From a virus: a DNA stretch of 64,000 nt. The DNA is taken from IMG/VR virus record IMGVR_UViG_3300024581_002111, positions 14,309-78,308 of that record. The stretch is one strand, 5' to 3'. Positions 6,097-40,534 of the stretch are shown here, piece by piece; the first letter of the stretch is position 1; each line of letters starts with the position of its first letter. The position numbers and the translations under genes are program-made. Under the pieces are notes generated by a model that did not search any database, was not told where the DNA came from, and was given only the letters and a program-made list of their open reading frames with translations.

Positions 6097-6740
6097 TGTG
6101 TGTCCCTGGGAAATAGTTTTTCCAAATCTGTGTGTTGATTTCTAAAAGACTCTTGTGTGTATATCGGTTCCCATTCAAACCTCACAGGTCTTTTGTATTT
6201 TTTCTCTGGTTGCATGAAGTCTTCGGACCAAACAATTTTAGCAGGCTTGTCCAACATGTGATACATTGCACTCAAGCCTAACAAGTTGCTGTGTATAAAG
6301 ATTTCTATTTCTCTCCACAAGTTGCGAGTCTCTGGTGTGTCTGGAATGATCAATTCTTCTTCCCAGTTGTCGTGAAATTGTTGTGGGTTGCTTTCAACTG
6401 CTACTGCATAAGTTGCCACAAACAAACTGCGTATTTGTGCATTAGTATCCTTACGCAATAACACATGTATTTCGTCTGATGATTTTTCTAACTCTCTGAA
6501 CCACCCTTTGGGACGGTATGGACAGTATTCTGAAAGGTGCCCAGCATGCACTTTGATCACAGCATCACTGGGTCCAAAGTAGTGTCTGTACACAGTTCTA
6601 AATCCTATCTTTGCTTCGTCTGTGCACCCCCGGGTAAGCATAAAAGGTTCGCCTAAATTGATTAAACCATACTGTTGAGCAATGCTTTGTGTGTAGTAAT
6701 TGCTTGCACTGCGAGGCGAAGTGAGAATCATTATCTTCAT
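6093..6740 (-). CDS. Sulfotransferase-like P-loop protein (paralog 2)
   Basis: IMILTSPRSASN, NLGEPF, VIKVH, RKDTNAQIRS. Tandem paralog of 5413. Confidence 0.55.
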   Translation of the reverse strand: MKIMILTSPRSASNYYTQSIAQQYGLINLGEPFMLTRGCTDEAKIGFRTVYRHYFGPSDAVIKVHAGHLSEYCPYRPKGWFRELEKSSDEIHVLLRKDTNAQIRSLFVATYAVAVESNPQQFHDNWEEELIIPDTPETRNLWREIEIFIHSNLLGLSAMYHMLDKPAKIVWSEDFMQPEKKYKRPVRFEWEPIYTQESFRNQHTDLEKLFPRDTQ

Positions 6741-6745
6741 GCTGT

Positions 6746-6765
6746 TATTTATACTACCATAAATA
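6746..6765. promoter_or_regulatory. Back-to-back divergent late promoters
   Basis: TATAAATA on minus at 6746-6753, 5 nt before ATG 6740. CATAAATA on plus at 6758-6765. Confidence 0.75.
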
Positions 6766-6773
6766 CTGTTATA

Positions 6774-7232
6774 ATGATAAAGCGAATACCATTTGAATAC
6801 ATATACCCAATCTGGAAAGACAGACTGTGGCCTAGCAGATTAAGTGACATAGAAACTCACAGTGCACTTACCTGGCCATTTGAAGGAGAGCCAGACAGCA
6901 TTGACATGAACATATTCAACTATGAACCAACATTCTTTGGCATGTTTATGGACAGCAAATTAGTGGGCGTGAATTCAGGACACCGCACTTCTGATCATCA
7001 GTATCGCAGTAGAGGTATTTGGGTTGACCCAGAATACAGAATGCATGGCATTTCACAGCAGTTGTTCGCCGCAACTCAACAGCAAGCAATAGATGAACAG
7101 TGTGATATGATATGGAGTATTCCAAGAAAAACCGCCCTAAAGGCTTACACCAAGTTTGGCTTCAGCACAGTGGGCGATTACTTTGGTACAGAAACTGCAG
7201 ATGCAAACATCTACGTCAGCAAGTATATCTAG
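6774..7232 (+). CDS. GNAT-family N-acetyltransferase
   Basis: Start re-assigned to MIKRIPFE. Motif A RSRGIWVDPEYRMHGISQQL and AYTKFGF. Confidence 0.75.
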   Translation: MIKRIPFEYIYPIWKDRLWPSRLSDIETHSALTWPFEGEPDSIDMNIFNYEPTFFGMFMDSKLVGVNSGHRTSDHQYRSRGIWVDPEYRMHGISQQLFAATQQQAIDEQCDMIWSIPRKTALKAYTKFGFSTVGDYFGTETADANIYVSKYI

Positions 7233-7819
7233 CCGCTTGCCTGAGATTCTCTTGCTATTTTAGCTTCTGCCGCTTGACTTCTTCGAATAGCACGTTCTGC
7301 TGAGAAGTCCTTGAGATATTGAAGCATGGTGTCACAGTCTGATACCAAGAAAGGATCAGACTCGATGTTATCACCGTATCCCGGTTCAACAAAAATCTTC
7401 TCCACAATGTTATCAGTGATAACTGCAGAATATCTCCAACTGCGGAAACCAAATCCCAAATTGTCTTTGTCTACCAACATGCCCATTTTACGACTGAATT
7501 CACCTGAACCATCTGGCAGTGCTTTGACATTTTTGATGTCTAAACTTTTGAGCCATGCGTTCATTACGAAACTGTCGTTAACGCTTAGACAGTAAACTTC
7601 GTCTACATCCTCGGCAAGGATTTCTTTATAGTTCAATTCGTATCCTGGTAAATGTGTGCTAGAACATGTAGGTGTGAAAGCGCCTGGCAAAGAAAACAGT
7701 ACAACTCTTTTGCCTCGGAATAGATCCACTGAATTCACATCCTTCCATTCGAAACCTGGTGCTTGGTCCGATTCAACTCTGGTGTGGAAAACCACATCAG
7801 GTACATTTACATAAAACAT
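7229..7819 (-). CDS. Peroxiredoxin, Prx5/PGdx type
   Basis: LPGAFTPTCSSTHLPG, VNDSFVMNAW, PDGSGEF, GFRSWRYS. Confidence 0.92.
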   Translation of the reverse strand: MFYVNVPDVVFHTRVESDQAPGFEWKDVNSVDLFRGKRVVLFSLPGAFTPTCSSTHLPGYELNYKEILAEDVDEVYCLSVNDSFVMNAWLKSLDIKNVKALPDGSGEFSRKMGMLVDKDNLGFGFRSWRYSAVITDNIVEKIFVEPGYGDNIESDPFLVSDCDTMLQYLKDFSAERAIRRSQAAEAKIARESQASG

Positions 7820-7845
7820 TATTCACTCCTGTATTGTGTGTAGGG

Positions 7846-9055: not shown

Positions 9056-9352
9056 TCATACGGGCTCTAAAATAATCTGTAATGGGTGCCCGCTGTGTCT
9101 AGCAACAATGGTCGATTCGTGTACTTTTTGTTCAGCAACTTCGTAACTGTAAGTACCAACTACTGCTTTGCCGTGTTCGTGTACTTCCATAGTGATATCC
9201 TGTGCACGTTCAATATCCTTGTTGAAAATTTCAATCAACAGATGTATCACAAATGCAACTGGAGTATAATCGTCATTCAAGAACACAACATTGTAACGCT
9301 GTGGGTATGCCAGTTTGGTCTGTGTTGTTGTTGCTGTTTGTGTTTTTGCCAT
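9056..9352 (-). CDS. clpS: ClpS N-end-rule adaptor
   Basis: VVFLNDDYTP, VHEHGKAVVG, YSYEVAEQK, HPLQ. Confidence 0.93.
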   Translation of the reverse strand: MAKTQTATTTQTKLAYPQRYNVVFLNDDYTPVAFVIHLLIEIFNKDIERAQDITMEVHEHGKAVVGTYSYEVAEQKVHESTIVARHSGHPLQIILEPV

Positions 9353-9370
9353 GTTGTCTTACCTGAAAGT

Positions 9371-9393
9371 TTGGGGGCATATTCTGCCCCCAA
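9371..9393. terminator. Perfect 9-bp GC hairpin between hsp20 and clpS (terminator or 5' stabiliser)
   Basis: TTGGGGGCA-tattc-TGCCCCCAA. The U-tail is weak. Confidence 0.5.
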
Positions 9394-9396
9394 GAT

Positions 9397-9404
9397 TATT
9401 TATA
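9397..9404 (-). promoter_or_regulatory. Late promoter for clpS
   Basis: TATAAATA. Confidence 0.7.
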
Positions 9405-9406
9405 TT

Positions 9407-9874
9407 CTAAGAGATCGAAATCTTCTTAGGCTTGGCTTCCTCTGGAACGTTCAAGAATAAAACAATCTTGAGTATGCCGTCTCTGAGGGTAGCTGTTTGT
9501 ACTTCCACGTGCTCTGCAAGTCTGAAAGTTCTCTGAAAGTTTCTTTCTGCAATGCCTTTGTGAATGTACTCTACAGTGGAGTTAACATCTTCTGCTAACA
9601 CCGCACTACGACCTTCCACTTTGAGATGCTTGTCTTCTACAGTGATTTCAATATCTTCCTGCGTGAAGCCTGCAACTGCAAGTGTGATCTCATACGTTTG
9701 AGCTTCGGTTTCTTTGTCGGTAACACGAGCAACATTATACGGAGGATATCCGCTTGCGCTGATGTTAACTGGATTGGTGAACATTTCGTCGAACAATCTG
9801 TCAAAGCCGACGCTCATTTTATATAGAGGTGAGTTTAAAAGGTCAGTGGTGACCCTGAGTTGTTTGCTTGTCAT
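9407..9874 (-). CDS. hsp20: Small heat-shock protein (IbpA-like Hsp20)
   Basis: VGFDRLFDEM, YPPYNV, LAVAGF, YIHKGIAERNF, LRDGIL...PEEAKPKKISI. Confidence 0.95.
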   Translation of the reverse strand: MTSKQLRVTTDLLNSPLYKMSVGFDRLFDEMFTNPVNISASGYPPYNVARVTDKETEAQTYEITLAVAGFTQEDIEITVEDKHLKVEGRSAVLAEDVNSTVEYIHKGIAERNFQRTFRLAEHVEVQTATLRDGILKIVLFLNVPEEAKPKKISIS

Positions 9875-9948
9875 AATAATCTCCTTAGTTAAGCAAGTTA
9901 TTTTAATGTAACATCTAGTAATACCCTATCGGCATATTACCTGTTACA
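9870..9948 (-). promoter_or_regulatory. ROSE-like RNA thermometer in the hsp20 5' UTR
   Basis: Minus strand AAUAACUUGCUU-AACU-AAGGAGAUUAUU-AUG: UUGCU pairs with the SD leaving a bulged G. An upstream long hairpin spans 9907-9948. Confidence 0.65.
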
Positions 9949-9952
9949 GTTT

Positions 9953-9960
9953 TATTTATC
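9953..9960 (-). promoter_or_regulatory. Late promoter for hsp20
   Basis: GATAAATA overlapping the stop of the upstream gene. Confidence 0.7.
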
Positions 9961-10264
9961 ACTCAACGAATAGGGCCTCATCCATTTTCTCGGCTTTTAA
10001 TCGAGTTTTAGGCAAGGTCCACACATGTTGAGCAACAAAATCTCTGTAGTCTGCATCTGTGTCAAACAGTGCAAACACCTGAATAGTCATACCCCATTGT
10101 TTTGGATCTTCGGGATATCTTACTTCAAATTCTACGTGGGCATCAGTATCTTCTGCCCACTGCCAATATGGCTTTAGTGTGTTGTGGATGCCATTTTCGG
10201 TCATCCATTCGTAGTCAGCATTGTCGCTTACCACACTGTCAATGATCTTATATTCTTTACGCAC
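9959..10264 (-). CDS. Hypothetical protein
   Basis: Operonic ORF overlapping its neighbours. Confidence 0.6.
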   Translation of the reverse strand: MRKEYKIIDSVVSDNADYEWMTENGIHNTLKPYWQWAEDTDAHVEFEVRYPEDPKQWGMTIQVFALFDTDADYRDFVAQHVWTLPKTRLKAEKMDEALFVE

Positions 10265-10646
10265 CTACTGCATACCTCAACAGTCCGCCAAACAACATCA
10301 GTGCAATCACACCGTTCAGCAGAATTAATGCACGGTCTTTCCACATGAATCCAACTGTCCACCAACCTACTGCACCAAGCCAACTGAGGAAAATATCCCA
10401 CACTTGAAATGGGTGCCCGAACAACATTGCGTCAGGTGTGTTACTAGCACGAATACTGATAGCCACCATCACGATACAACTGCTGATCCATTTGATCCAC
10501 CAACTGAGATCGCCCTTGGGTGTAGCACTTTTTACAATACGATTACTGTGCTTGATTTCAGCAACAGTGAATTCGGCTTTCTGTCCTTCGATTACTACAT
10601 TATCCAGCTTCTCTGAATCTGGAGTTACTTTTCTAACCACCGTCAA
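10257..10646 (-). CDS. Small multi-TM membrane protein (DUF6552-like, from recollection)
   Basis: SWWIKWISS...GWWTVGFMWKDRALILLN. Confidence 0.6.
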   Translation of the reverse strand: MTVVRKVTPDSEKLDNVVIEGQKAEFTVAEIKHSNRIVKSATPKGDLSWWIKWISSCIVMVAISIRASNTPDAMLFGHPFQVWDIFLSWLGAVGWWTVGFMWKDRALILLNGVIALMLFGGLLRYAVGA

Positions 10647-10908
10647 GTTCCTTCTCGGTTATGGTAGGCATTTTACTTGGTTCGAGGTTTCCCGATACCA
10701 CTTCACAACATAGAAAATCCGTGTTGTCTATCACCTGTCTTAGTTTACTATCTAACTTACTCCCATAGCTCAGTAGCTCATTGTTATACTCTAAGTCTAT
10801 AGTCAAAGTTGCTCTAATCTTTTTTGTTCTTTCCAAAAATCCTTTCCCAGCCATCCTCATATTTGGTTTGGCTTGTGTCTTTACGTCGAGCAGATCCTTT
10901 GCCACCAT
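10633..10908 (-). CDS. Hypothetical protein, true start probably downstream of 10908
   Basis: The C-terminal part overlaps the next gene. The 5' part overlaps the better ORF 10814-10990. Confidence 0.4.
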   Translation of the reverse strand: MVAKDLLDVKTQAKPNMRMAGKGFLERTKKIRATLTIDLEYNNELLSYGSKLDSKLRQVIDNTDFLCCEVVSGNLEPSKMPTITEKELDGG

Positions 10909-10990
10909 GCCAGCTTTTCAAATGCTCGGTACCGCTTGGTGGGTTACGATCAGTGCCCATTGAACCTTTGTGAGTCTTATCATCAGACAT
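10814..10990 (-). CDS. 58-aa small phage protein, GGKGS...W..IFGK type (not in track)
   Basis: MSDDKTHKGSMGTDRNPPSGTEHLKSWHGGKGSARRKDTSQTKYEDGWERIFGKNKKD. Start overlaps the MazG-like stop and has GGAG upstream. Confidence 0.7.
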   Translation of the reverse strand: MSDDKTHKGSMGTDRNPPSGTEHLKSWHGGKGSARRKDTSQTKYEDGWERIFGKNKKD

Positions 10991-11228
10991 CTATGTTACT
11001 CCACTTTTTCAATTTGTCACGCTTGAGTTGTTGACGATTGTATATATCTTCGTCGGTGTAATAACCGTGTTTTTTCAGAAGATCTAACATCAAATATACA
11101 TCGCCTATTTCTTCAACGAGATTGCGTAGATACTTTTTCTTGCCGCCGCTACGCATAACCTTACTGCATGCTTGCACCAGTTCACCACATTCTTCCATGG
11201 TGATGATCAGTATCTCTTCAGTTTTCAT
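10983..11228 (-). CDS. MazG-like nucleotide pyrophosphohydrolase
   Basis: TMEECGELVQACSK...LVEEIGDV. Confidence 0.8.
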   Translation of the reverse strand: MKTEEILIITMEECGELVQACSKVMRSGGKKKYLRNLVEEIGDVYLMLDLLKKHGYYTDEDIYNRQQLKRDKLKKWSNIDV

Positions 11229-11637: not shown

Positions 11638-11860
11638 TTTCTGACTCCCATTGATACAGTGCTTGGCTATATCCGACCTGCATCACACTGTACTCGTTTA
11701 GTTCTTCGCGATACTTGACAACTTCCTCGTACTGCTCTCTGGTCAAATCAACAATATCTTCAACTTCAAAATGTTCGCAGATGTGTTGCACAACATCGTC
11801 TATGATTTGATTTTCATAGTACTCTTCGTTCTTGTACATCCTGGGCCATTCATACAACAT
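11630..11860 (-). CDS. Acidic hypothetical protein
   Basis: Start re-assigned to MLYEWP, with GAGGAG 6 nt upstream. Confidence 0.6.
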   Translation of the reverse strand: MLYEWPRMYKNEEYYENQIIDDVVQHICEHFEVEDIVDLTREQYEEVVKYREELNEYSVMQVGYSQALYQWESEND

Positions 11861-13359: not shown

Positions 13360-13613
13360 CGTTTGCCTCCCATTTCGCGAAAACTTCTTTCCATATCAAG
13401 TTCTTGTTGTATCTTCTTTGCCCTACGGTCACTGAGTATGTTATGTAATGCAAACAAACCCATCTCAGCACTGAACCACAGAGTGAGGAAACATATCAAT
13501 ATGATGGATTGATCAGTAGGATCTATGTCTGCTATCTTGGCCAATATCACATTGATGCAAAGTGCTGAAACAGCCACAGTTGCCAGAATTGTACTCACAC
13601 GCAATATATTCAT
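13356..13613 (-). CDS. Small two-TM membrane protein
   Basis: Two hydrophobic segments, directly behind a sigma70 promoter. Confidence 0.6.
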   Translation of the reverse strand: MNILRVSTILATVAVSALCINVILAKIADIDPTDQSIILICFLTLWFSAEMGLFALHNILSDRRAKKIQQELDMERSFREMGGKR

Positions 13614-13619
13614 ACAACA

Positions 13620-13647
13620 AGTATAGCAAACTATGTGCTGTTGTCAA
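13620..13647 (-). promoter_or_regulatory. sigma70-type early promoter
   Basis: TTGACA-N16-TATACT with TGn extension, 6 nt before ATG 13613. Confidence 0.75.
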
Positions 13648-14168: not shown

Positions 14169-14185
14169 ATGTTTACTCCTGGTGA

Positions 14186-14335
14186 TTAAAAAGAATGGAT
14201 ATACAAGAACCAATTAATAAGTGCGATCAAACCTGCTTGCATGGTCACTGCTCCTAACACCACACAAGTGGGGAAAATTGCATTAGCCTTTGCAGGGTTG
14301 TCTTTGACCCATTGTTCAAGTTCCTTCTCTGTCAC
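14186..14335 (-). CDS. 49-aa single-TM protein (not in track)
   Basis: GTG start: MTEKELEQWVKDNPAKANAIFPTCVVLGAVTMQAGLIALINWFLYIHSF. Confidence 0.55.
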   Translation of the reverse strand: MTEKELEQWVKDNPAKANAIFPTCVVLGAVTMQAGLIALINWFLYIHSF

Positions 14336-14339
14336 ATCC

Positions 14340-15176
14340 TTATTTATCAAAGAATTTTTTAATGTGGGTGTATAAGTGATTTGCTATTGTTTTATGCCCT
14401 AATATAGAATAATGAATGTAGTCCACATGCGGCACCAAATGATATTGAGTCTGATTATGCTCATAGTCCTCATTTCTGTGTTCCGGCCAATAATCATTGA
14501 TAAACATATGATGTTTGCTAGAACCAGAGATTACTTCCACAGGAGAGTTATCTGGGTAATTGGTTTTCCACCAATCCAATATGGTATTTCCTGTGGCTTC
14601 CCACAGATACACATGTGGTATGTTGTGCTGTGCAAGAAACGCATCCAACATCAACCACTGAGTTGTAAAATACTCGTTGTCCATCTCTATATCTGAGCAG
14701 TAATTTTCTATTGCTGTGTGTAAGTTATGATCTTGTTCACAGAGTTGCCAGTCTTTGCTGTTCAGTTTGTATCGTGTGTAAATACCCCTGTTGGTCATAT
14801 CGATATTAGCAGTGTCTAAATTCTCGCTGTACCCCTCACCCATCAGTGACATTTCTTTTTCTCTGCGTATACCTACAGTATTAAAATGAGTCTGGGCCAT
14901 CTTACGTCCACTGCTGGTGCGACTCATCCAACTGCTGGCTAATTCCCTGCGTGTAACGTCAGTGAATTGTATAATCAACATGTCGGCATCAGTGAGTTCA
15001 CCATTGTGTACTGCATGCACAATTTGCCTGATACTGCGATAATTACTGCCGCCGCCGCCGGCTAGATGTACATAGTCATAGTTCATCTTTTCTGCAAGGT
15101 AATCGCCGTAACTGTGTGTGGTTTGTGTTCTATCTGCAATGCTACACCCAGCACTGAATACTCGTGGCTTACGCAT
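14340..15176 (-). CDS. SGNH/GDSL-like hydrolase or acyltransferase (paralog 1)
   Basis: AGCSIAD (block I), GGGSN (block II), HYSILGHKTIA (block V). Confidence 0.6.
   Translation of the reverse strand: MRKPRVFSAGCSIADRTQTTHSYGDYLAEKMNYDYVHLAGGGGSNYRSIRQIVHAVHNGELTDADMLIIQFTDVTRRELASSWMSRTSSGRKMAQTHFNTVGIRREKEMSLMGEGYSENLDTANIDMTNRGIYTRYKLNSKDWQLCEQDHNLHTAIENYCSDIEMDNEYFTTQWLMLDAFLAQHNIPHVYLWEATGNTILDWWKTNYPDNSPVEVISGSSKHHMFINDYWPEHRNEDYEHNQTQYHLVPHVDYIHYSILGHKTIANHLYTHIKKFFDK
14341..14348 (-). promoter_or_regulatory. Late promoter, 5 nt before GTG 14335
   Basis: GATAAATA-aggat-GTG. Confidence 0.65.
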
Positions 15177-17196: not shown

Positions 17197-17601
17197 TTAA
17201 CGTAGGCCTGATTTACGCAAACGTGTAGCAACTGCATTCAACATATCTGAATGCTTTCTTCTTTTGCGCTTGCTTTTCATAAAAGAAATATCTGAGCTCA
17301 CCTGTACTGGAGCATCGCCGGTTGCTAATAATTTACGTTGTTCTCGCTGATGTCTCTTCACAGCAGAGTCCTTGGTTCTCTTCTTTTTAGCAGATGGCTT
17401 CTCGTAGTACTCTCGCTTGGCTAATTCCTTTTGCCTGTTGTCGTTCTCTAAGATTTTTTTGAGTCTACGCAATGCACCATTTACATCGTCGCCGCGGACA
17501 TAAACACTGGCACCACGAAACTCTTCTTTGGGCTCGTTAAACTTCTTTTTGTTTCTGTTGTTGAAGTTGCCTTTGTGCTTATTCCAATTGTTATTTTTCA
17601 T
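17197..17601 (-). CDS. rpsU: Ribosomal protein bS21 with basic N- and C-terminal extensions
   Basis: VYVRGDDVNGALRRLKK...KREYYEKPSAKKKR...AVKR. Start MKNN has GAGG and overlaps the clpX stop. Confidence 0.85.
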   Translation of the reverse strand: MKNNNWNKHKGNFNNRNKKKFNEPKEEFRGASVYVRGDDVNGALRRLKKILENDNRQKELAKREYYEKPSAKKKRTKDSAVKRHQREQRKLLATGDAPVQVSSDISFMKSKRKRRKHSDMLNAVATRLRKSGLR

Positions 17602-19454: not shown

Positions 19455-20979
19455 TTAATTTCTCCTGTATGCGTTTTTCCAGCTCTAGTATTGCTGGCGG
19501 AACGCTTAAATCTAAGTCTGGTTCTTTTTTCTTGCGCGGCTTTCTTTTGGGTTTTACGCTAGAAGGTTTATCGACTTGCTGTGTAGAACTGTTGTCTCCA
19601 GTTGTCCCCACTTGTTGTAGGTGTGCACTGTCGTCTGTTGTATTCCGTCCTTTGGTAGAATTTTTACCGTTGTTTTTATCATCGGTCTGTCCAGCACTGG
19701 ATCCCCCATTGGGTGGGTTGGCATTGCTGGTGTTGCCGCTATCGGGTTTATTTCCGTCATCATCTGGTCCTGCCTTTTCTAAATTAATTCCATACCTCAG
19801 CAGTGTCTGGTTAGCCGCAATAACCAACATAACCGCCAGTGGGTCAAACACAAACACCAGCATCAGTATGAATACCTGTACTGCTTTGTCTAACAACTCT
19901 TGATCGTCACCACCAAACAATAATTGCGCCACATACTTGATAGGGCCTACTTCTTTTTCTAATGCACGAACTTCACGTTCTGCTTCAAACTTCTCGTCTT
20001 TGAGCAGTGCAATAGAATCATATATGGCATCGATCTGACTGTTGTAGTCATCAATTTGTGCCAGTTGTTCGTCTTGATTTTGTGCACTTTGGTTACGCAC
20101 ACGGTTTATTTCTGCATTGGCATTGTCAATTGTGGTTTGTGCTTGGCTTCTATATCTGTCGATTGCTTTCTGGAAAGTGCTGATATCTGCGTTTGCTTGT
20201 GTACGCAATGCTTGACGCTGTGTGTTTAGCTCTGCTTTCTGAGAGGCAATTTGATCACGTTCTGATTGTTGCGACTCACGCAACTGATTTGCTTGTGCAA
20301 CATAGTTAATGGTGTCTACTTCTGCACTTCTGAACAAACCACCCTGGTCGGTTTCAATAGTGGCAACACCTTTGTTGCGTAACTCATTTACTGCACGATC
20401 TAACTCTGTGAGTCTGGCATCCAGTTTGTTTTCTCTGACATCAAGTCCTTCTAGGTCAGCAGTTAGTTGTGCTCTCACACTGACAATTTGTTGCTGGTTA
20501 TAATCAATGTCGCCTTGTACCTGTTCCCAGGCACCATCTCTGATACTTTCTTGTTGGGATATATCAGTAGTAGATTGCAGGCCGCCTAATCCCGAAATAC
20601 GATCTTGCAGTATGCTGATCTTGTTTTCTTCTCGAGCAATTTGCCCGTCAATGCGCTCTACAATGGCAAACGCTTCACTGCTGACACCTGCCTGGTCTAA
20701 GTGTGCTTTAGACAGATAACCAAAGATACCCATGCTGGTTATGAGCATGAGCACAAGAACCGCGGCACTTAAATATGATTTTAATGCCAGTCCTGTACTT
20801 TCCCAGTACCTGTATAACCAACTTGCTGTGAGCAGTTTGCCCACTTCCAGTGTCCCGGCCATAACTGCAATAGGTAGTGCGGCCGCACTGAATATGGCCA
20901 TCAGTCCAGCAATGCTGAACCAAGCCGCAACGCCCGCTATTGTTAAAGCGGTTAAAAGTGTGAGTATTCCAAACCACAT
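19447..20979 (-). CDS. Membrane protein with N-terminal TMs, a long coiled coil and a further TM
   Basis: LEVGKLLTASWL, GIFGYLSKAH, about 280-aa heptad region, EVGPIKY, FVFDPLAVML. Confidence 0.8.
   Translation of the reverse strand: MWFGILTLLTALTIAGVAAWFSIAGLMAIFSAAALPIAVMAGTLEVGKLLTASWLYRYWESTGLALKSYLSAAVLVLMLITSMGIFGYLSKAHLDQAGVSSEAFAIVERIDGQIAREENKISILQDRISGLGGLQSTTDISQQESIRDGAWEQVQGDIDYNQQQIVSVRAQLTADLEGLDVRENKLDARLTELDRAVNELRNKGVATIETDQGGLFRSAEVDTINYVAQANQLRESQQSERDQIASQKAELNTQRQALRTQANADISTFQKAIDRYRSQAQTTIDNANAEINRVRNQSAQNQDEQLAQIDDYNSQIDAIYDSIALLKDEKFEAEREVRALEKEVGPIKYVAQLLFGGDDQELLDKAVQVFILMLVFVFDPLAVMLVIAANQTLLRYGINLEKAGPDDDGNKPDSGNTSNANPPNGGSSAGQTDDKNNGKNSTKGRNTTDDSAHLQQVGTTGDNSSTQQVDKPSSVKPKRKPRKKKEPDLDLSVPPAILELEKRIQEKLNG
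19554..19763 (-). CDS. Candidate nested gene in an alternative frame inside 19447-20979
   Basis: AGGA 5-6 nt upstream, genome-typical A-ending codons, protein-like MTEINPIAAT...TYNKWGQLE...SINLLA. Confidence 0.5.
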   Translation of the reverse strand: MMTEINPIAATPAMPTHPMGDPVLDRPMIKTTVKILPKDGIQQTTVHTYNKWGQLETTVLHSKSINLLA

Positions 20980-20984
20980 GCAAG

Positions 20985-20992
20985 TATTTATC
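20985..20992 (-). promoter_or_regulatory. Late promoter, 5 nt before ATG 20979
   Basis: GATAAATA-cttgc-ATG. Confidence 0.7.
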
Positions 20993-21033: not shown

Positions 21034-21041
21034 TATAAATA
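21034..21041 (+). promoter_or_regulatory. Late promoter, 5 nt before ATG 21047
   Basis: TATAAATA-tagcc-ATG. Confidence 0.7.
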
Positions 21042-21046
21042 TAGCC

Positions 21047-22276
21047 ATGAGACTGGAAAAAGTTACATTAAATTACAATGATTTTGCTTTCATCGACTGG
21101 TCAAGTATACATTCAGGTTCAACAGTAATAGATTTGTTTTGTAACGGAGAATTCTTGTGGGGCACTCGTGTGTTGGAAAAATTCCTCAAGTACGGTATTC
21201 GCATAGGAGAAAAATACGGTACTCGCGGTATCACAGTGCAAGACATGATGAACTCTGGTGCAGACACAAACACAGTTTACTGCATTTCTGTTGAGGCATT
21301 TACACGATTAAGCAACATAGATCGTTATATGCTGTTGACAAACTATATTGTGATGATATGTGACTTAGCCGAAGGTGGATTTCATTTTAGCGAATTGTTA
21401 GAAAAATACAATAGAAGATTAGACTCCTTTACAAAAGGTGAGCCTGTTAGGTGTTGTTTTGTGGGTACAACAGGCATGGAAAATTTCAACTTCATAAACG
21501 GAGTGAGAAACACCATCAACATACCATATTTTATGTTGTTGACATCCTGGGAGTGTCACAGTAAAGGGTTAATACCGGATCCTAAACAGTTCATGAAGCC
21601 AGTCAAATCAGCACTAATACCTGTGCACAAACCCAGAAAGCACAGAATCAAAATGTTAGCACAACTAGACTCAATGGGACTGTTAAATGTATGTGATTGG
21701 AGTTTGACAGTAGGCGGACCTGACAATAACGAATTAGGTGATTTTCGACACACACCCAATGTGAGTATAAGTAGGTTTGACTTCCTCAAAACAGATCCTG
21801 TGTGCAAAAGTTTTTATGAAAAATATCAACACCAACTGCCTAAGTCGTTGGTAGACAATGACATCACAGAGTTCAATGAGTGTATTCCTCTACCGGTACA
21901 ACTTGCTGGCAAGTATCAATGGTATGTGAGTTGTGAAACGTACACTCACATACAATTTATAACTGAAAAAACATATAAGGCATTCATGTGTGGGTTGCCG
22001 GTGTTGTTGGTTGCTGATGCTAACACTGCAAAGAGCTTTTCTGAATCCACCGGATTTCAATTACCTTATCATGAAAGATATGATACCGAAGGTATCAAAG
22101 ATTTAGATCACACTAGATTTAAAATCATAGCAGAACTGATAGCCGAGAATCCTGCTGTGCACAAAGACACAATCATGCACAATTTTAATTTGATTAACAA
22201 CATAGAATGGCAAGTGGTATCAGTAGTGCAACCGTTGGTAGAAATGTATGAATACTGCCCTAGTGAAGTGGGTTAA
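21047..22276 (+). CDS. Putative GT-B-like glycosyltransferase (FITEKT..F type)
   Basis: KPRKHR, CDWS, VSCETY..FITEKTYKAFMCGLP, GFQLP, HNFNL. Confidence 0.45.
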   Translation: MRLEKVTLNYNDFAFIDWSSIHSGSTVIDLFCNGEFLWGTRVLEKFLKYGIRIGEKYGTRGITVQDMMNSGADTNTVYCISVEAFTRLSNIDRYMLLTNYIVMICDLAEGGFHFSELLEKYNRRLDSFTKGEPVRCCFVGTTGMENFNFINGVRNTINIPYFMLLTSWECHSKGLIPDPKQFMKPVKSALIPVHKPRKHRIKMLAQLDSMGLLNVCDWSLTVGGPDNNELGDFRHTPNVSISRFDFLKTDPVCKSFYEKYQHQLPKSLVDNDITEFNECIPLPVQLAGKYQWYVSCETYTHIQFITEKTYKAFMCGLPVLLVADANTAKSFSESTGFQLPYHERYDTEGIKDLDHTRFKIIAELIAENPAVHKDTIMHNFNLINNIEWQVVSVVQPLVEMYEYCPSEVG

Positions 22277-23472: not shown

Positions 23473-24454
23473 CTAAATCAAACTCCTTTCTTGCTACAAG
23501 TCTGTAGCGTGTTACTATGTTTCTTATTTTGTTATTTATAAGTTCTCGAGATTCATTTGACATGCTGTTACCATTTCTTACCCACTCTAACAGTGCATGC
23601 AAGTATTCTTTTTCACTTACACTGTGTCCGCTCATTATATTATCGTGCGGTGAATAACATTCGTTAAACACGCTTTCTATGATCACACCCGAAACAGCAA
23701 TGTTGCTTGCCTTGTTAACTTGTTCTTTTTCAAGGTGCCGCAGTTGTTTGAATAATTTTCTATCTAAATCAAGATAATCTCGTAAGCCATCAGAGTTTCT
23801 GTTGATGTGAGTTTCTAGTACATATTTAAACTTGTCCATCACTGACAACAAAGTAGGATCTTTTGTATGTCTACCGTAACCGTCATCAACAGAATTATGT
23901 TTTGGTATTTTAAAATCTGGCGGTAGATTGTGCACAGATCTTATCCAGTTGTCGAGATTGTCGATGTACAACAGTTCTGTGTTTGCTAACTCCCAATACA
24001 ATATCCAGATCACCAACATCACACGCTGTGTGTGATTGTTGTTCAGCCCAAACAACCATCCAGATAATTTAAAGATTTGAAACACAAAATTTCTGTACCA
24101 CTCTGAATCTTTTTTCTTCCAAAATTCTGCTCTTTGTTCCCCGTTGGTGCTTTCCCATGCAAGTAGGTCTAAGTTCTCAATTATCAAATAATTGAAACCA
24201 CTTATGTAACGTTTTACAGGATCTCTGTACAGCAAAGTGGTTGTGTACTCTGCTGGTATTAACTTGCGTGTAGCTGATAAGTCCAGATAATTTTCATGAG
24301 AATCAGAAACAATCTGTTTCCAACCGACAATGTTTTCGTGTGCTTGAGTTTTAATAGATGATTTCCAATCTAGTAGATTAGAAATTGTGGTGCCGGCAAC
24401 CTTGGGGTGTGTGATGAGGGCTCGACGTAGCTGATGATTGATGAATATGTGCAT
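23465..24454 (-). CDS. Sulfotransferase-2-like protein
   Basis: THPKVAGTTI (5'-PSB-like) and YRDPVKRYISG (3'-PB-like). Confidence 0.55.
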   Translation of the reverse strand: MHIFINHQLRRALITHPKVAGTTISNLLDWKSSIKTQAHENIVGWKQIVSDSHENYLDLSATRKLIPAEYTTTLLYRDPVKRYISGFNYLIIENLDLLAWESTNGEQRAEFWKKKDSEWYRNFVFQIFKLSGWLFGLNNNHTQRVMLVIWILYWELANTELLYIDNLDNWIRSVHNLPPDFKIPKHNSVDDGYGRHTKDPTLLSVMDKFKYVLETHINRNSDGLRDYLDLDRKLFKQLRHLEKEQVNKASNIAVSGVIIESVFNECYSPHDNIMSGHSVSEKEYLHALLEWVRNGNSMSNESRELINNKIRNIVTRYRLVARKEFDLDV

Positions 24455-24459
24455 TCATG

Positions 24460-24467
24460 TATTTATA
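24460..24467 (-). promoter_or_regulatory. Late promoter, 5 nt before ATG 24454
   Basis: TATAAATA-catga-ATG. Confidence 0.7.
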
Positions 24468-29509: not shown

Positions 29510-29797
29510 TTACTCCTTGGGTATCTTGTGCTTAAATAAATTTAATGCAGAGTTTACACTATCTGCTACGTTGTTGTCAACCTCGAGCTCACTGATGGGT
29601 ATAACAGGCAACACTACTGCATTTAGGATAAATATTAAATGTTGCGTCAGTTCGGGCACAGTTTTATCTGCTACAGCAACAGGCGTTCGATCAAAGTCAA
29701 TAACCTCACCTAGGTCATTGGTGTACACACGGTGTATTGCAACCGTGTTATCTTTGTGTTGTATTACTCGATACAGTGATATGCCAGTGTCAATCAT
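29510..29797 (-). CDS. Conserved phage hypothetical protein
   Basis: YRVI...IHRVY...PV...EL...LPVI pattern, directly behind a sigma70 promoter. Confidence 0.6.
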   Translation of the reverse strand: MIDTGISLYRVIQHKDNTVAIHRVYTNDLGEVIDFDRTPVAVADKTVPELTQHLIFILNAVVLPVIPISELEVDNNVADSVNSALNLFKHKIPKE

Positions 29798-29803
29798 AAT
29801 GTA

Positions 29804-29831
29804 ATTATACGATATTTATAAACATTGTCAA
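29804..29831 (-). promoter_or_regulatory. sigma70-type promoter with TATAAATA in its spacer
   Basis: TTGACA-N16-TATAAT, 6 nt before ATG 29797. Confidence 0.75.
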
Positions 29832-34728: not shown

Positions 34729-34736
34729 AATAAATA
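34729..34736 (+). promoter_or_regulatory. Late promoter, 5 nt before ATG 34742
   Basis: AATAAATA-gttgc-ATG. Confidence 0.55.
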
Positions 34737-34741
34737 GTTGC

Positions 34742-35269
34742 ATGCATGTACAACAACTAGAATCAAAAATCAATCACAGCAAACTTATCGATGACTTCAA
34801 AGCATTGAATGAAAATGTTTTGTTTGATCCAATTACTGGTCAAATCAGTATAACCAGTATCGAAGGCGACAACGATTGGACCTGCAGTGTGGGAAAAATA
34901 CACATGCTGAAAAAGCCAGAGAAATTTTATTGTGTGCTGAACAAAATGTTAGCGGGCAGTGAATTTGAAAAAGTTGTTAAAGCGTACCCAGAATTTTATC
35001 GCTGGAGATTAATGCAGTTGGGTCCTCGACAAATTTACAGCATACACAGTGACAGTAATGGCAATGGCAAGAAAAACAAAAGACTGCACATACCATTGGT
35101 GTCTAATCCCAACTGCTATATGATGTTTATAGATGACGACATCACAAAGCCCACCATGTATCATTTAGACGTGGGTAAAGTTTACGAAGTAAACACAACC
35201 GGCAGACACACTGCATTTAATTGCGGAATACACAACAGAGTACATCTCGTAGGAGTTAGATATGAATAG
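34742..35269 (+). CDS. Asp/Asn beta-hydroxylase-like 2OG-Fe(II) dioxygenase
   Basis: RWRLMQL, IHSD, RLHIPL, HTAFN, RVHLVG. Alternative start at 34724. Confidence 0.75.
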   Translation: MHVQQLESKINHSKLIDDFKALNENVLFDPITGQISITSIEGDNDWTCSVGKIHMLKKPEKFYCVLNKMLAGSEFEKVVKAYPEFYRWRLMQLGPRQIYSIHSDSNGNGKKNKRLHIPLVSNPNCYMMFIDDDITKPTMYHLDVGKVYEVNTTGRHTAFNCGIHNRVHLVGVRYE

Positions 35270-35833: not shown

Positions 35834-35841
35834 GATAAATA
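35834..35841 (+). promoter_or_regulatory. Late promoter, 5 nt before ATG 35847
   Basis: GATAAATA-ctact-ATG. Confidence 0.7.
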
Positions 35842-35846
35842 CTACT

Positions 35847-37424
35847 ATGAAGAAGGTAGTACTATACCCAGGTAGATTCCAACCAATGCTTCCGCATCAT
35901 GCAGAAGTATACAAACACCTTGTAGCACAGTTTCCAGACGCTGACGTTTATGTAGCAACTTCTAACAAAGTTGAAATGCCCAAGTCGCCGTTTGATGCCA
36001 GAGAAAAGTCTGCAATCATGACGCAGTTACATGACATACCAGCAGACAAAATTCTCATTGTGCGTAGCCCATACAATGCTAGAGAATACGAATCTGTGTT
36101 TGACATGGATAACACCGTTGCTATTTTTGCTGTGGGTGGCAAGGACATGGAAGATGATCCTCGCTTCAGTTTCAAACCCAAAAAGGACGGAAGCCCAAGT
36201 TACCTTCAGAAGATAAATACAATTAGTGACGGCGAAATGCCAATGACCCAAAGAGGGTATGTGTACAGTGCGCCTACTGTGAGCAACGGAGATGAGGCGG
36301 CGAGTGCAAGTGCATTTAGAAACAGTATTTCTAGTGCACCTGATCTTGACAGTGCTAAAAAAGTTTTCACTGACACATTTGGCAAGTTCGACGAAAAAGT
36401 ATTTACGCTAGTATATGATAAAATAACGGGAACTAACATGAGCGAATCATTAGACATTTTAAGACAGTTAGCAGGAATTAGTGAGGCTCCTGTTGATTTC
36501 AAACCAGGCAAAGGCAAAATGGACTACGAGCCAAAGATCAGCCGCAAGGATCAAGCAGACGCTGACTCAAGACCAGAGAAAGCGGCATCAAGCAATCCAG
36601 ATACTGCAACGTTCACAGACATAGCACCAGATGCTATGATCAGTGTTGACACCGGCAAACCCATCAACAGCAAAGGTCGTTTCAACAGCATGGCTAACAT
36701 GGTGCCAGCAGACCAAGATCCAAATGATCCTCAAGTGAAAAAAGAACTGTTTATCAAGCTCATGGCCAAGTCACCATCGTTCCTGTTAGGTGAAATCAAT
36801 GCACGATTAGGCACAGACGATGAGAGTTTGGCAGCCAGTGATAGATTAAGTGCTATCATGAAGCGTGTGGAAGGCGGTAGCATCATGGACTTGCCCGAAG
36901 ACGATCGTCAATGGACAATGAAGTTAGTCAAAAATGCACTGTTAAACATGGAGTTGCACAGAGCAGACACAGGCGACCAAGAAGAGTTTGGTGAGCCTGA
37001 TCCAGAAGAAAATATGCCAGAAGAAAGTGTTGATTTCGACGATATCCGTGGCGAGTACGGTATTGAAGAAGAAGCAGACAATTATGTTGAGCAGTATGAT
37101 TGGGCATGCGAAAAATGTGGACACACTAACACATTTGGGATGACTCAACAAGAAGCAGACGAATATATCAAAAACTGGGAGAGTGAAAATCCAGAAGAAG
37201 TTAAAGATGGACAATCAGGTGAGTCTCAGTTAGACTGGAACATGAATGTTATCGGTCCCGATAGCATGATGCACCAAGACGAAAAATGTAGCAACTGCGG
37301 TGCACCTGTTGAAGATGCAAAGGAAGACGAAGCAGAAGAAACAGTTGAACAGGCTGTGGAAAGCACAACAGATAACGCACTGAATGCGGCATTAGCAGAA
37401 CTAAGAAGTTTAGCAGGATTATAA
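35847..37424 (+). CDS. Cytidylyltransferase-like domain fused to acidic internal-head modules and a Zn ribbon
   Basis: YPGRFQPMLPHH, SPFD..EK, VGGKD, SASAFR, then LRQLAGISEA, CEKC...CSNC, LRSLAGL. Confidence 0.7.
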   Translation: MKKVVLYPGRFQPMLPHHAEVYKHLVAQFPDADVYVATSNKVEMPKSPFDAREKSAIMTQLHDIPADKILIVRSPYNAREYESVFDMDNTVAIFAVGGKDMEDDPRFSFKPKKDGSPSYLQKINTISDGEMPMTQRGYVYSAPTVSNGDEAASASAFRNSISSAPDLDSAKKVFTDTFGKFDEKVFTLVYDKITGTNMSESLDILRQLAGISEAPVDFKPGKGKMDYEPKISRKDQADADSRPEKAASSNPDTATFTDIAPDAMISVDTGKPINSKGRFNSMANMVPADQDPNDPQVKKELFIKLMAKSPSFLLGEINARLGTDDESLAASDRLSAIMKRVEGGSIMDLPEDDRQWTMKLVKNALLNMELHRADTGDQEEFGEPDPEENMPEESVDFDDIRGEYGIEEEADNYVEQYDWACEKCGHTNTFGMTQQEADEYIKNWESENPEEVKDGQSGESQLDWNMNVIGPDSMMHQDEKCSNCGAPVEDAKEDEAEETVEQAVESTTDNALNAALAELRSLAGL

Positions 37425-37426
37425 TC

Positions 37427-37963
37427 ATGAATGACATGCGTAAATTAATGGAAACTGTTGCTCCTCTGTTTGAGGATTACGACCCTAAGCTGATTAAAAT
37501 GCTTGCTGACTTTGAAAGAAACTGTGAGGAATACAGATACTATGGCGACACTGATGTTGTTACCATAGACAAGTTACTCAAAGCAGGCAGAGCAGAAGAC
37601 GCCGCAGAAGAAATGGCGGGTGCAATGTCAGATCAAGATGGCGGCAGTGACAAGTTTGATCACATTTACGACATGGCCAAAGACGCTGTAGATGATTACA
37701 TGCATCAAGAACCTGCAATGGCAGAACAGTCAGTATCCGAAAGCAACGTAGAAGCTATAGAAGAATTAGAAAACATCCTAGATGAACTTGAGCGTTTAGG
37801 TGAGCAAGCAAGATATGCTGTACGCAGTATTTCACGTGAAGCAGAACAACAGTTAAGTGCATACGGTGCATTTGATTTTGGTAGCAGTTCTAACCAATAT
37901 GATGTGACCTTAGCAAGTTTCTTAGACGATGCACAAAGTGGAAGTTACGATGAACGAGATTGA
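37427..37963 (+). CDS. Acidic internal-head-type protein
   Basis: MNDMRKLMET...LFED, very D/E-rich. Confidence 0.6.
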   Translation: MNDMRKLMETVAPLFEDYDPKLIKMLADFERNCEEYRYYGDTDVVTIDKLLKAGRAEDAAEEMAGAMSDQDGGSDKFDHIYDMAKDAVDDYMHQEPAMAEQSVSESNVEAIEELENILDELERLGEQARYAVRSISREAEQQLSAYGAFDFGSSSNQYDVTLASFLDDAQSGSYDERD

Positions 37964-38297: not shown

Positions 38298-39144
38298 GCC
38301 ACTCCGTATTTTCAACTAGATCATTTGCATACTCAGGCCAAAAGCGTCCTGCTCTTGGACCGCCGTTACATTTACCGTCCGATTCCCCGGGCACTTTGAT
38401 CCACAAGAATGCATCACATAGTTCATCGCCTGTGTTGGTTGTAGGTGGATTACCTAAGGCTCTACCGGGTGGGTTGCACCAATCATTACCGTAAGGTCCA
38501 ACGCCATTACGACTAGTGTCTATCACAAAATGCTTGTACTTGGTATACTCTGCAACACGTTTACTCCAGGCCATACTCTCTTGTGTGGTTCTAAAATTGC
38601 TTACATTAACACTGAACCCACGCACAAACTTGTTGCCCACTTTGTCTAGCAACTTGCCTGCTGTCTCTGGATCTAACCAATTACTGTGCCCAACATCGAT
38701 GTATATACGGGCCTTACAACGCTCTGTAAGCACCCACAGCGCATTTTTCATAAGACTAAGGCGTTGTTCTGCCTCTTCCTTATCAAGCAGTGTGCTGTGT
38801 GGTATAGCATCAGGTTCAAATATGATTATTAGTTCTCTGTCGCCTATTGCATAAGCAATGCTTTCTAACCAAATCAAATAATTATCTTTGCTTTTAGCAC
38901 CGCCCTTGCTGTAGTGTCCCATATCCCGATTGGGCATGTTGTACAGTACCAGCACAGGAAGTTTGTCACCACAACGTTGCAGTAACCTACCGAGGCTTTT
39001 GTGAACTGTGCTACAACTGCCTTTGCCGTTTCTCTCACCATACCAAAATGCCATTGGTTGCTCAAAAATTTTGCTCACCAACGGATATTTTAGTTTGTGA
39101 TCTTTGACCCGGTCAAAGTCATTAACCCAAAAGGGATAATCCAT
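38290..39144 (-). CDS. GH6 endoglucanase (cellulase family 6), catalytic domain only
   Basis: YNMPNRD, IFEPDAI, YIDVGHSNW, GFSVNVSNF, IDTSRNG, WCNPPGRALG, WIKVPGESDG.C, AGRFW. Confidence 0.92.
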   Translation of the reverse strand: MDYPFWVNDFDRVKDHKLKYPLVSKIFEQPMAFWYGERNGKGSCSTVHKSLGRLLQRCGDKLPVLVLYNMPNRDMGHYSKGGAKSKDNYLIWLESIAYAIGDRELIIIFEPDAIPHSTLLDKEEAEQRLSLMKNALWVLTERCKARIYIDVGHSNWLDPETAGKLLDKVGNKFVRGFSVNVSNFRTTQESMAWSKRVAEYTKYKHFVIDTSRNGVGPYGNDWCNPPGRALGNPPTTNTGDELCDAFLWIKVPGESDGKCNGGPRAGRFWPEYANDLVENTEWLN

Positions 39145-39145
39145 A

Positions 39146-39883
39146 TCAGTATACTGTGTGTATGTTATCTATTGTGAGAGGCATCTCATTTTCAGTTGGA
39201 TATGTGTATTGATTACGCAATTTTGGCATAGTTGGCTTGTCCCACAAACCCTGTTTGCATTTTTCAATAGTCATTGAGTCAATGCCTGCTAATGCCATTT
39301 CATCATAATCGCTGAGAATGTAACCCATACTGCGTGGTTGCATCATGCAGGGTTGTGGTACCATTGCCCAAACACCATCTTCAGCATCTTTGTTATAATG
39401 GCCGTTGTAGTATGTATCGTTAGTAGGTAGTAATTTGTAGACTGTGATTCCGCCGTCGGGAGTCAAAAATTGTGGCACAGGCAACAAAACATTTGTGTCA
39501 TTGTTGTAGTTGATTAATGCCATGTCGCCACCTTCTAATTGTAGTTGGCTTCGTTGCATGTGATCTAGATATTCACCGTTGCGACCTATTCCCATTTGTC
39601 TGTTTTCTAATCTACCAGTTTTATGGTCAACTGCTTCTCTGGTATCATCGGGTTGAAAGTATCCATAAATTTCTCCCCACTGTTCGCTGATCCATTCTTT
39701 TTCAAATATCTGCCAATGGTCAGGTGAGATATAAGTTTCTTCACCCTTGTAAACTTTTGTGTAGCCTTTGCTACCGCCTTCGTGAGCATAGTAGACACAT
39801 TTTCCGTCTGCTAGGCTACATTTTAATTCTTTGGTATTGCAGTCAAAATGCCAGCTCAATACTAAGTGTGGTTTGTCGCTCAT
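39146..39883 (-). CDS. Hypothetical protein
   Basis: Operonic between def and the GH6 gene. Confidence 0.6.
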   Translation of the reverse strand: MSDKPHLVLSWHFDCNTKELKCSLADGKCVYYAHEGGSKGYTKVYKGEETYISPDHWQIFEKEWISEQWGEIYGYFQPDDTREAVDHKTGRLENRQMGIGRNGEYLDHMQRSQLQLEGGDMALINYNNDTNVLLPVPQFLTPDGGITVYKLLPTNDTYYNGHYNKDAEDGVWAMVPQPCMMQPRSMGYILSDYDEMALAGIDSMTIEKCKQGLWDKPTMPKLRNQYTYPTENEMPLTIDNIHTVY

Positions 39884-40521
39884 TAATCTCTCCCAATATT
39901 CCTTAATTGTTTAATTCTCTTTTGTTGTTTTTCCATTGCTCTACGCAATTTAAAATCACTAGCATCATCGATAAACAGTTTGCCCTCAAGATGATCGTAT
40001 TCGTGCAAGAAGCAACGTGCATCCATACCATCCATCCAGGTCTCAACCACAGTGGTTCCGTCTGTTTTTATATATCTTACTTTGACTCTTTCGGGTCTAG
40101 TAATGTTCATGAACAGCAAAGGGAAACTTAAACAGCCTTCCTCTATCACTGCCTTGCCTTCTACTTCTAATATTTCAGGTTTGTAAATACCAATCTCGCC
40201 AAGGTGGCTGTGATTCATCACAAACATTCTATAACTGCTACCTACTTGAGGAGCGGCGAGACCGATACCAAAGCGGTTTTGCATGAGTTCGCACATTTCA
40301 CGTTCGCGTTGATACCAGTCTACATTGCCGCTGAATGGGTCCGTAGTAGCACGTTTCTTTAAGATTGGGTGCTTGGGTTCAACCAGTGCACAGTTCCACT
40401 CCTCGACTAGAGTAGTACCCAATGATACCGATTCAGAACTTGTATACTTAGCGTATGGATTATATGCTTTTGTTCTTGTAGGTTGTTCTACAATGTTTAT
40501 GTTTGTTGCTTCGTGTTCCAT
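39883..40521 (-). CDS. def: Peptide deformylase
   Basis: GIGLAAPQVG, EGCLSFP, HEYDHLEG. Confidence 0.95.
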   Translation of the reverse strand: MEHEATNINIVEQPTRTKAYNPYAKYTSSESVSLGTTLVEEWNCALVEPKHPILKKRATTDPFSGNVDWYQREREMCELMQNRFGIGLAAPQVGSSYRMFVMNHSHLGEIGIYKPEILEVEGKAVIEEGCLSFPLLFMNITRPERVKVRYIKTDGTTVVETWMDGMDARCFLHEYDHLEGKLFIDDASDFKLRRAMEKQQKRIKQLRNIGRD

Positions 40522-40526
40522 ACTAC

Positions 40527-40534
40527 TATTTATG
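40527..40534 (-). promoter_or_regulatory. Late promoter, 5 nt before ATG 40521
   Basis: CATAAATA-gtagt-ATG. Confidence 0.7.

Follow-up and report, generated by a model that had tools for sequence, protein, structure and literature searches.

The late promoters of T4 and similar phages are textbook examples of elements that produce messages led by a Shine-Dalgarno (SD) sequence, and among SD-using Proteobacteria and their phages leaderless mRNAs are regarded as rare. Here we describe a 64,000-nucleotide stretch of viral DNA (henceforth the window, i.e., bases 14309-78308 of the single 82,265-bp contig IMGVR_UViG_3300024581_002111 of IMG/VR) in which boxes of the T4 late type, (N)ATAAATA, lie exactly 5 nucleotides (nt) before a set of start codons, a placement that would leave the transcripts of these genes without a leader. 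In T4, the corresponding box (TATAAATA), used together with gp55, gp33 and the gp45 clamp, spans positions -13 to -6 and is a proven promoter (PMC2988020), and for the related phages CBB and GAP32 a previous study put forward ATAAATA as the late promoter, alongside a gp55-like sigma factor (PMC5259590).

Promoters that adjoin start codons are known from other systems. Leaderless transcripts have been mapped experimentally in the Thermus phages Lalka27a and phiYS40 (bioRxiv 10.64898/2026.04.20.719267; phiYS40 as far as the Lalka preprint relays it), and -10 boxes adjoin open reading frames (ORFs) in Deinococcus-Thermus (PMC12340547), but those hosts use leaderless mRNAs massively and have other promoter motifs. 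By contrast, the phage genes studied here, and presumably those of the host, use SD sequences, and the candidate leaderless class is a subset of genes behind a T4-type box, known from sequence. The lambda cI mRNA made from PRM is similar in that a promoter abutting its gene yields a transcript with a 5'-terminal AUG in an SD-using host, and its translation is sensitive to the ribosomal content of uS2, bS1 and bS21 (PMC10491246). However, cI is one regulatory gene of a temperate phage, whereas the fused genes described here number about a dozen per 82 kb, occur clade-wide, and include enzymes and, in the cultured T4-like pelagiphage HTVC008M (NC_020484), virion proteins.

The phage further resembles the pelagimyophages and the PA5oct-like jumbo phages in carrying genes for bS21, peptide deformylase (def) and an Asp/Asn hydroxylase (all core genes of pelagimyophages; PMC7029224), in its clpX-bS21 linkage, in its synteny with PA5oct and in having starts 5 nt past a box. 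Late-promoter prediction was reported as failed in pelagimyophages (PMC7029224), and the PA5oct study gives only sigma70-like promoters (PMC7318152). Our literature search found no published work joining the T4-type late box with leaderless mRNAs, and the fused late promoters of these phages appear not to have been described before. The locus shares with T4 the 8-bp box, whose first base is variable and which has no conserved -35 element, placed before virion genes and on both strands; HTVC008M has a gp55 homologue and PA5oct a gp55-like sigma factor. It differs in that T4 genes start 12-36 nt past the box behind SD leaders, whereas here a quarter of the boxes abut an AUG, and in that searches of this contig, a partial genome, returned neither gp55 nor gp33 nor gp45.

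Late boxes at a fixed distance from start codons

We searched for (N)ATAAATA, meaning that ATAAATA is invariant by definition of the search and variation is limited to the first base, which can be T, G, C or A. The window contains 34 copies of ATAAATA against 11.9 expected from shuffled sequence (a roughly 3-fold excess; 0 of 100 shuffles reached 34), and the whole contig contains 42. Half of these (21/42) fall in the ~4% of the DNA outside longest-ORF gene calls, a more than 10-fold enrichment in non-coding DNA; nearly all of the non-coding boxes are aimed at a gene within 80 nt, and they are co-oriented with the genes. Alignment of 11 box sites revealed no conserved upstream columns (-35). 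Among the genes led by a box are those for fibre-like proteins of 1102 and 1044 amino acids (aa) and for a 429-aa virion protein. The sites with a start codon exactly 5 nt past the box are as follows (coordinates are window positions unless marked contig):

6738..6753 (-): TATAAATA box, 5-nt spacer, ATG 6740; 215-aa protein without assigned function, first gene of a divergent unit, SD energy -3.0 kcal/mol
14333..14348 (-): GATAAATA box, 5-nt spacer, GTG 14335; 49-codon hydrophobic ORF, the weakest case
20977..20992 (-): GATAAATA box, 5-nt spacer, ATG 20979; 510-aa membrane protein, minus-strand half of a divergent promoter pair
21034..21049 (+): TATAAATA box, 5-nt spacer, ATG 21047; 409-aa protein, other half of the divergent pair
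24452..24467 (-): TATAAATA box, 5-nt spacer, ATG 24454; 329-aa sulfotransferase-like protein
34729..34744 (+): AATAAATA box, 5-nt spacer, ATG 34742; 175-aa Asp/Asn-hydroxylase-like protein
35834..35849 (+): GATAAATA box, 5-nt spacer, ATG 35847; 525-aa protein with an N-terminal nucleotidyltransferase-like domain
40519..40534 (-): CATAAATA box, 5-nt spacer, ATG 40521; peptide deformylase (def)
contig 3540 (+), 6657 (-) and 79642 (-): further box sites with 5-nt spacing, beyond the window

One gene has an intermediate spacing, and two large genes illustrate the leadered class:

6758..6776 (+): CATAAATA box, 8-nt spacer, ATG 6774; GNAT acetyltransferase, divergent partner of 6740
61756..61790 (-): GATAAATA box, 24 nt with AGGAG, GTG 61758; 1044-aa fibre-like protein
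1013..1057 (+): GATAAATA box, 34 nt with GGGAG, GTG 1055; 1102-aa tail or fibre protein

An earlier note on this DNA had listed the eight start codons of the window as lying exactly 5 nt past such a box, and all eight are indeed there. It had also suggested a genome-wide histogram of box-to-start distances, which peaks at 5 nt. Specifically, when ATGs were counted across the contig regardless of annotation, 10 of the 42 boxes had one at spacing 5 (plus one GTG), while all other spacings from 0 to 60 had at most 3 ATGs each (mean 0.97), giving a binomial P of ~1e-8, or ~6e-7 when corrected for 61 spacings. Every one of the 10 ATGs opens an ORF (68-525 codons). Gene starts lie either exactly 5 nt or at least 11 nt past their box, the single exception being the acetyltransferase at 8 nt (ATG 6774), whose predicted leader of ~3 nt would make it near-leaderless. 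The division into two late gene classes by box distance was therefore borne out. Genes of the second class have the same box with leaders of ~10-70 nt, mostly with an SD; of those named in the earlier note as having longer, SD-like leaders, prx, hsp20, the fibres and the subtilase agree with that description, while clpS and clpX do so weakly.

Could such a pattern arise by chance or from annotation artefacts? The choice of start is ambiguous for 34742, 35847 and 14335. However, the peak (P ~1e-8) is independent of annotation, and the spacing is kept in ten related loci and at annotated starts of HTVC008M. Spacing statistics and conservation together effectively refute this explanation, which we consider practically out of the question.

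We consider it likely (with a probability of roughly 0.7) that at these sites promoters are fused to start codons and give rise to leaderless mRNAs, an arrangement that has been conserved. The (N)ATAAATA boxes would be T4-type late promoters, read by the host RNA polymerase with a phage gp55-family sigma factor encoded elsewhere in the genome, and a conserved subset of genes would have this box fused to the start codon by the 5-nt spacing. Transcription of this subset would begin at, or within one base of, the A of the AUG, leaving neither leader nor SD, and ribosomes would recognise the 5'-terminal AUG with initiator tRNA. As the earlier note had pointed out, the T4 geometry (box at -13 to -6; PMC2988020) does set +1 on the A of the AUG. 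A second group of genes would achieve the same through host-type sigma70 promoters, with the ATG 6 nt past the -10 hexamer, and the remaining late genes would use the same box with SD-containing leaders. From these observations we infer where transcription starts, which sigma factor takes part and how ribosomes load.

The surroundings of the boxes bear on a second way of explaining the spacing. Seven of the 11 late cases lie downstream of a co-directional gene, and the gaps can be tiny: the box of 24454 fills the 14-nt gap behind the TGA of the upstream gene, and the upstream stop codon lies inside the box for def (40521) and the 14335 ORF, and inside or adjoining it at contig 79642. The boxes might accordingly be internal promoters that boost downstream genes, with the adjacent gene translated by termination-reinitiation and the 5-nt spacing a product of packing into minimal gaps. 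We regard this as very unlikely. Packing pressure would not set exactly 5 nt, and this spacing also holds where there is free space (the divergent promoter pair of 20979 (-) and 21047 (+) occupies a 67-nt intergenic region) and across relatives with different neighbours. In favour of the leaderless reading, the genes at contig 3540 and window 6740, 20979 and 21047 are the first genes of divergent units, where the box is the sole promoter-like element.

Sigma70-type promoters, start codons and conservation

Leaderless geometry is not restricted to the late box. The contig contains 12 strong sigma70-type promoters (defined as exact TTGACA, 16-18 nt, and TATAAT with at most one mismatch), three of which have an ATG exactly 6 nt past the -10 hexamer and no SD (P 0.0016):

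62471..62507 (-): TTGACA, 16 nt, TATAAT, 6 nt, ATG 62473; 223-aa protein, early-type leaderless geometry
29795..29831 (-): TTGACA, 16 nt, TATAAT, 6 nt, ATG 29797; 95-aa protein
13611..13647 (-): TTGACA, 16 nt, TATACT, 6 nt, ATG 13613; 85-aa protein

In the standard geometry, the sigma70 -10 hexamer spans positions -12 to -7. Spacing 6 at these promoters and spacing 5 at the late boxes thus both put +1 on the A of the ATG, and this agreement between two promoter classes is the strongest internal argument for leaderless transcripts. It also means that the earlier note was mistaken in treating leaderless design as specific to late genes: the geometry is a general design option of the phage, not confined to them. 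The promoter of 29797 contains a late box within its spacer. We compared the contig with ten related metagenomic loci (36-95% protein identity at marker genes), and the fused sigma70 promoters are kept in two of them (L003 and L004) with changed letters in the 6-nt spacer; the L004 counterpart of the 13613 promoter has TATAAT at -10 and a different spacer.

Starts at spacing 5 from a late box have SD pairing energies of -3.0 to +1.6 kcal/mol, i.e., essentially none, while about 60-63% of the genes in the contig have a candidate start with an SD of -4.5 kcal/mol or lower (against 5-10% of random positions). All but one of the 14 leaderless candidates (late and sigma70 together) use ATG, the other using GTG. 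The first 45 nt of the candidates (n=13) have a mean minimum free energy of -3.2 kcal/mol, compared with -5.6 kcal/mol in SD genes (P 0.01; a modest effect), and the G content of their 5' coding regions is 0.16 compared with 0.22. Less structured and G-poor 5' coding regions fit the need for an accessible 5' AUG. An A is found at +4 in 7 of the 13 candidates, a count without a baseline from which we draw no conclusion.

The start codons themselves are backed by the N-termini or lengths of homologues for 21047, 20979, 35847, def and 34742. For instance, homologues of the 409-aa protein (21047) measure 401-409 aa at 98-100% coverage, the 510-aa protein has a conserved N-terminus, MWFGILTL, that begins at ATG 20979, and the family of the 525-aa protein (more than 400 proteins) has N-termini of the form MK.V..YPGRFQP, corresponding to ATG 35847. 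The earlier note had cautioned that 34742 and 35847 have alternative in-frame starts at 34724 and 35832. Alternatives do occur in this sequence, but 34724 is absent in L009, which keeps the box and its 5-nt spacing, and 35832, an ATG from which the box itself would be read as codons, is contradicted by the N-terminus of the family.

Conservation across the related loci is clearest at the divergent pair, where the box lies 5 nt before the start on both sides in 7/7 relatives (42-100% protein identity), with spacer letters differing. In the two most distant loci the called starts are upstream, yet the conserved N-termini begin at the ATG 5 nt past the box. These calls (L007 2690-2760 and L008 2200-2262) were made automatically and extend the divergent genes through the boxes, for example by placing MIRGQIAINMF before MWFGILTL. 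Judged by this comparison, over-extended public gene calls are a systematic mis-annotation resulting from the putative fused promoters. For 24454, box and spacing are kept in L003, and in L004 the spacing is unchanged with a box that reads CTAAATA. Moreover, L010, L011 and L012 each have 4 of their 10-12 boxes at spacing 5.

Orthologues of def show two discrete solutions and no intermediate: L009, L010 and L012 retain the 5-nt spacing without an SD, even though their N-termini differ by indels of up to 15 residues, while L011 has 24 nt between box and start, including GAGG, an SD. The def product (39883-40521 (-)) has a ~45-residue extension before its Pfam domain; among relatives this extension differs in length (165-212 aa for the whole protein), and the start 5 nt past the box is usually retained. 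The hydrophobic ORF at 14335 is absent in L004, where the same box drives iscU via an SD leader. Over ~150 nt this ORF (14186-14335 (-)) is nucleotide-identical in L003, with a differing flanking spacer, and it may be a recently moved gene for a small membrane protein.

These comparisons bear directly on the possibility that the box, at -12 to -6, acts in the RNA of longer transcripts, either as an A/U-rich substitute for the SD (an S1-type enhancer) or as a translational operator. The box does sit where an SD would, the 7/11 cases within co-directional arrays are likely to be covered by longer transcripts, and A/U-rich regions upstream of starts generally favour initiation. We nevertheless consider this explanation unlikely. 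An RNA-level box leaves three complete, conserved sigma70 promoters with an ATG at 6 nt unexplained; the same box precedes other genes by 21-39 nt, with room for a normal SD that is indeed present; def has either 5 nt or, in one relative, 24 nt and an SD; and divergent first genes have no other promoter, while the motif is a proven promoter in T4 (PMC2988020).

Cultured phages and the late sigma factor

The earlier note had proposed extending the spacing histogram to related phages, and starts at spacing 5 were found in several of them. Counting ORF starts (at least 50 codons) at spacing 5 after ATAAATA gave:

T4: 0 (starts 12-36 nt downstream)
S-PM2: 1
Melnitz: 3
PA5oct: 4
HTVC008M: 9
this contig: 10

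HTVC008M contains 45 ATAAATA boxes, nine of which are followed at 5 nt by an ATG that opens an ORF (6280, 7562, 16007 (-), 18916 (-), 19456, 31132, 49760, 75559 and 142360). All seven of those in the annotated first 50 kb (7/7) coincide with annotated coding-sequence starts, mostly of tail and baseplate genes, and the genes concerned include those for the tape measure, a gp2-like end protector, the tail-tube cap and a baseplate wedge. Of the four PA5oct sites, one coincides with the annotated start of a virion protein that mass spectrometry has detected, and a +1 is predicted at 144985 for the structural protein gp262. No peak at spacing 5 was found in KVP40, Syn9, P-SSM2, RaK2, GAP32, phiM12 or SCTP-2, the first six having at most 2 ATGs of any kind at that spacing; the late motif of SCTP-2 may differ from ATAAATA. 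The fused design is thus not peculiar to this phage, being stronger in the cultured HTVC008M, and on the sequences compared it is common to a broad clade of marine large phages together with that pelagimyophage.

The proposed late sigma factor was sought in both the contig and the cultured phages. HTVC008M encodes a clear gp55 homologue (E 6e-21), and PA5oct has an annotated gp55-like 'sigma factor for late transcription' with weak similarity to T4 gp55. Scans of 40 proteins of the contig with PHROG and Pfam profiles yielded no sigma factor, gp33 or clamp (gp45).

Several points weigh against leaderless late mRNAs. No gp55-like gene was found in the 82-kb contig, a partial genome, by tblastn with T4 gp55. 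The 5' ends are deduced from geometry, the available RNA records being assembled contigs without readable starts, and the gene calls in the contig are heuristic. In 6 of the 11 cases a co-directional stop codon lies 0-14 nt before the AUG, making reinitiation on read-through RNA possible. The register is not absolute either, as the nucleotidyltransferase gene has spacing 6 in L010 and L011. Finally, the start codon of one late candidate (14335) is GTG, and leaderless initiation at GTG is poor in E. coli.

Phage bS21 and genomic context

The earlier note had stated that the phage encodes its own bS21, which proved to be the case:

17197..17601 (-): bS21 gene, 134 aa; PF01165 (Ribosomal_S21) match at residues 33-84, E 9e-13

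The gene shares 11 nt with the end of clpX, as part of the clpX unit behind the late box at 18893-18899. PA5oct has the same clpX-bS21 overlap, and the orthologues in L003-L005 have the same Pfam match. Like pelagimyophages, the window combines bS21, def and the Asp/Asn hydroxylase, and def and the hydroxylase-like gene both start 5 nt past a box. Previous work in E. coli offers a precedent for a role of bS21: ribosomes without bS21 (and uS2) handle the leaderless lambda cI mRNA more easily, bS21 shapes the anti-SD and mRNA exit region (PMC10491246), and kasugamycin-induced 61S particles without S21 translate leaderless mRNAs (PMC3653068). Given that loss of bS21 eases leaderless translation, extra bS21 would by this precedent favour the SD class.

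The full model of the earlier note held that leaderless and SD-led late mRNAs are balanced by the phage bS21 and that leaderless design acts as a timing filter against early read-through. In its favour, bS21 is encoded in a late unit, the pelagimyophage core genes def and Asp/Asn hydroxylase are present in the window as well, and starts at spacing 5 were found in phages that encode bS21 (this contig, HTVC008M, PA5oct and Melnitz), while relatives and outgroups lacking bS21 have few (0 in T4, 1 in S-PM2, and at most 2 ATGs in Syn9, P-SSM2, KVP40, RaK2, GAP32 and phiM12); the absence of bS21 also alters leaderless translation (PMC10491246). However, this co-occurrence is loose, coming down to roughly two independent contrasts between lineages, there is no peak at spacing 5 in SCTP-2 even though that phage encodes bS21, and the E. 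coli data point the opposite way, with loss of bS21 favouring leaderless mRNA. As for timing, leaderless geometry at early sigma70 promoters leaves no late filter, and such a filter would be leaky because the stops within 0-14 nt of the AUG in 6 of 11 cases allow termination-reinitiation. A scan for terminators between the early promoters and def or 24454 gave results not above chance and is uninformative. Taken as a whole, we consider the model unlikely.

A related proposal, of which we are equally sceptical, is that bS21, possibly along with peptide deformylase (which is co-conserved), evolved in concert with the fused late promoters as a specificity factor. In this scheme, late in infection bS21 would reshape host ribosomes around the anti-SD and the mRNA exit and so shift translation between SD-led and leaderless phage mRNAs. 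If true, this would explain why both traits are found in pelagimyophages and PA5oct-like jumbo phages, and why there is no peak in their sisters lacking bS21 (cyanomyophages; RaK2 and GAP32).

The contig has a gene content and order that link it to cultured jumbo phages. Window positions 54714-64000 and 9056-22829 are collinear with 157-164 kb and 169.7-172.9 kb, respectively, of the Pseudomonas jumbo phage PA5oct; the first cluster comprises nrdB, nrdA, a fibre-like gene, a PD-(D/E)XK-like gene and a virion protein, and the second clpX, bS21, PTPS, hsp20 and clpS. Collinearity of the two clusters marks the contig as a fragment of a marine relative of the PA5oct-like large phages, and on this synteny it is placed near the PA5oct-like (Arenbergviridae) phages. 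No close DNA relative was found among 50,697 phage records, and for two of the window proteins no relatives were found in IMG/VR; sequence words of the window match marine, seawater and wetland metagenomes. The window has a G+C content of 42%. Its auxiliary genes are clpX, clpS, hsp20, peroxiredoxin, cysteine desulfurase, peptide deformylase, ribonucleotide reductase and bS21, and it also encodes subtilase and reprolysin-like peptidases and the fibre-like proteins of 1102 and 1044 aa. Two further features were noted:

48899-49138 (-): tRNA cluster with Gly-GCC, Ala-TGC and Thr-TGT
42367-42425 (-) and 42805-42864 (-): near-identical early cassettes, each with a sigma70 promoter, attgttagttaggaa..ggagtagaaa and ATG

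The latter form a duplicated expression module, in which the promoter and 5' untranslated region lead two adjacent small genes.

No RNA runs containing the 19-25 kb stretch were found. Parts of the region at 35.7-37.4 kb are present in twelve metatranscriptomes, as assembled contigs only, and short contigs matching 35901-37959 at 98-99% identity occur in seawater, aquatic and salt-marsh metatranscriptome assemblies. Judging by these matches, RNA libraries contain this phage or one very closely related to it, with DNA carry-over possible.

If the leaderless interpretation is correct, a late promoter and a leaderless start would be fused with single-base precision, in an arrangement conserved in widespread marine large phages. 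The fused spacing may account for the unsuccessful prediction of late promoters in pelagimyophages (PMC7029224). The rule that a start lies 5 nt past the box improves start-codon annotation, since gene callers over-extend such ORFs. Finally, cultured phages that combine bS21 with candidate leaderless late genes (HTVC008M on Pelagibacter and PA5oct on P. aeruginosa) would provide a concrete read-out for the function of phage bS21.

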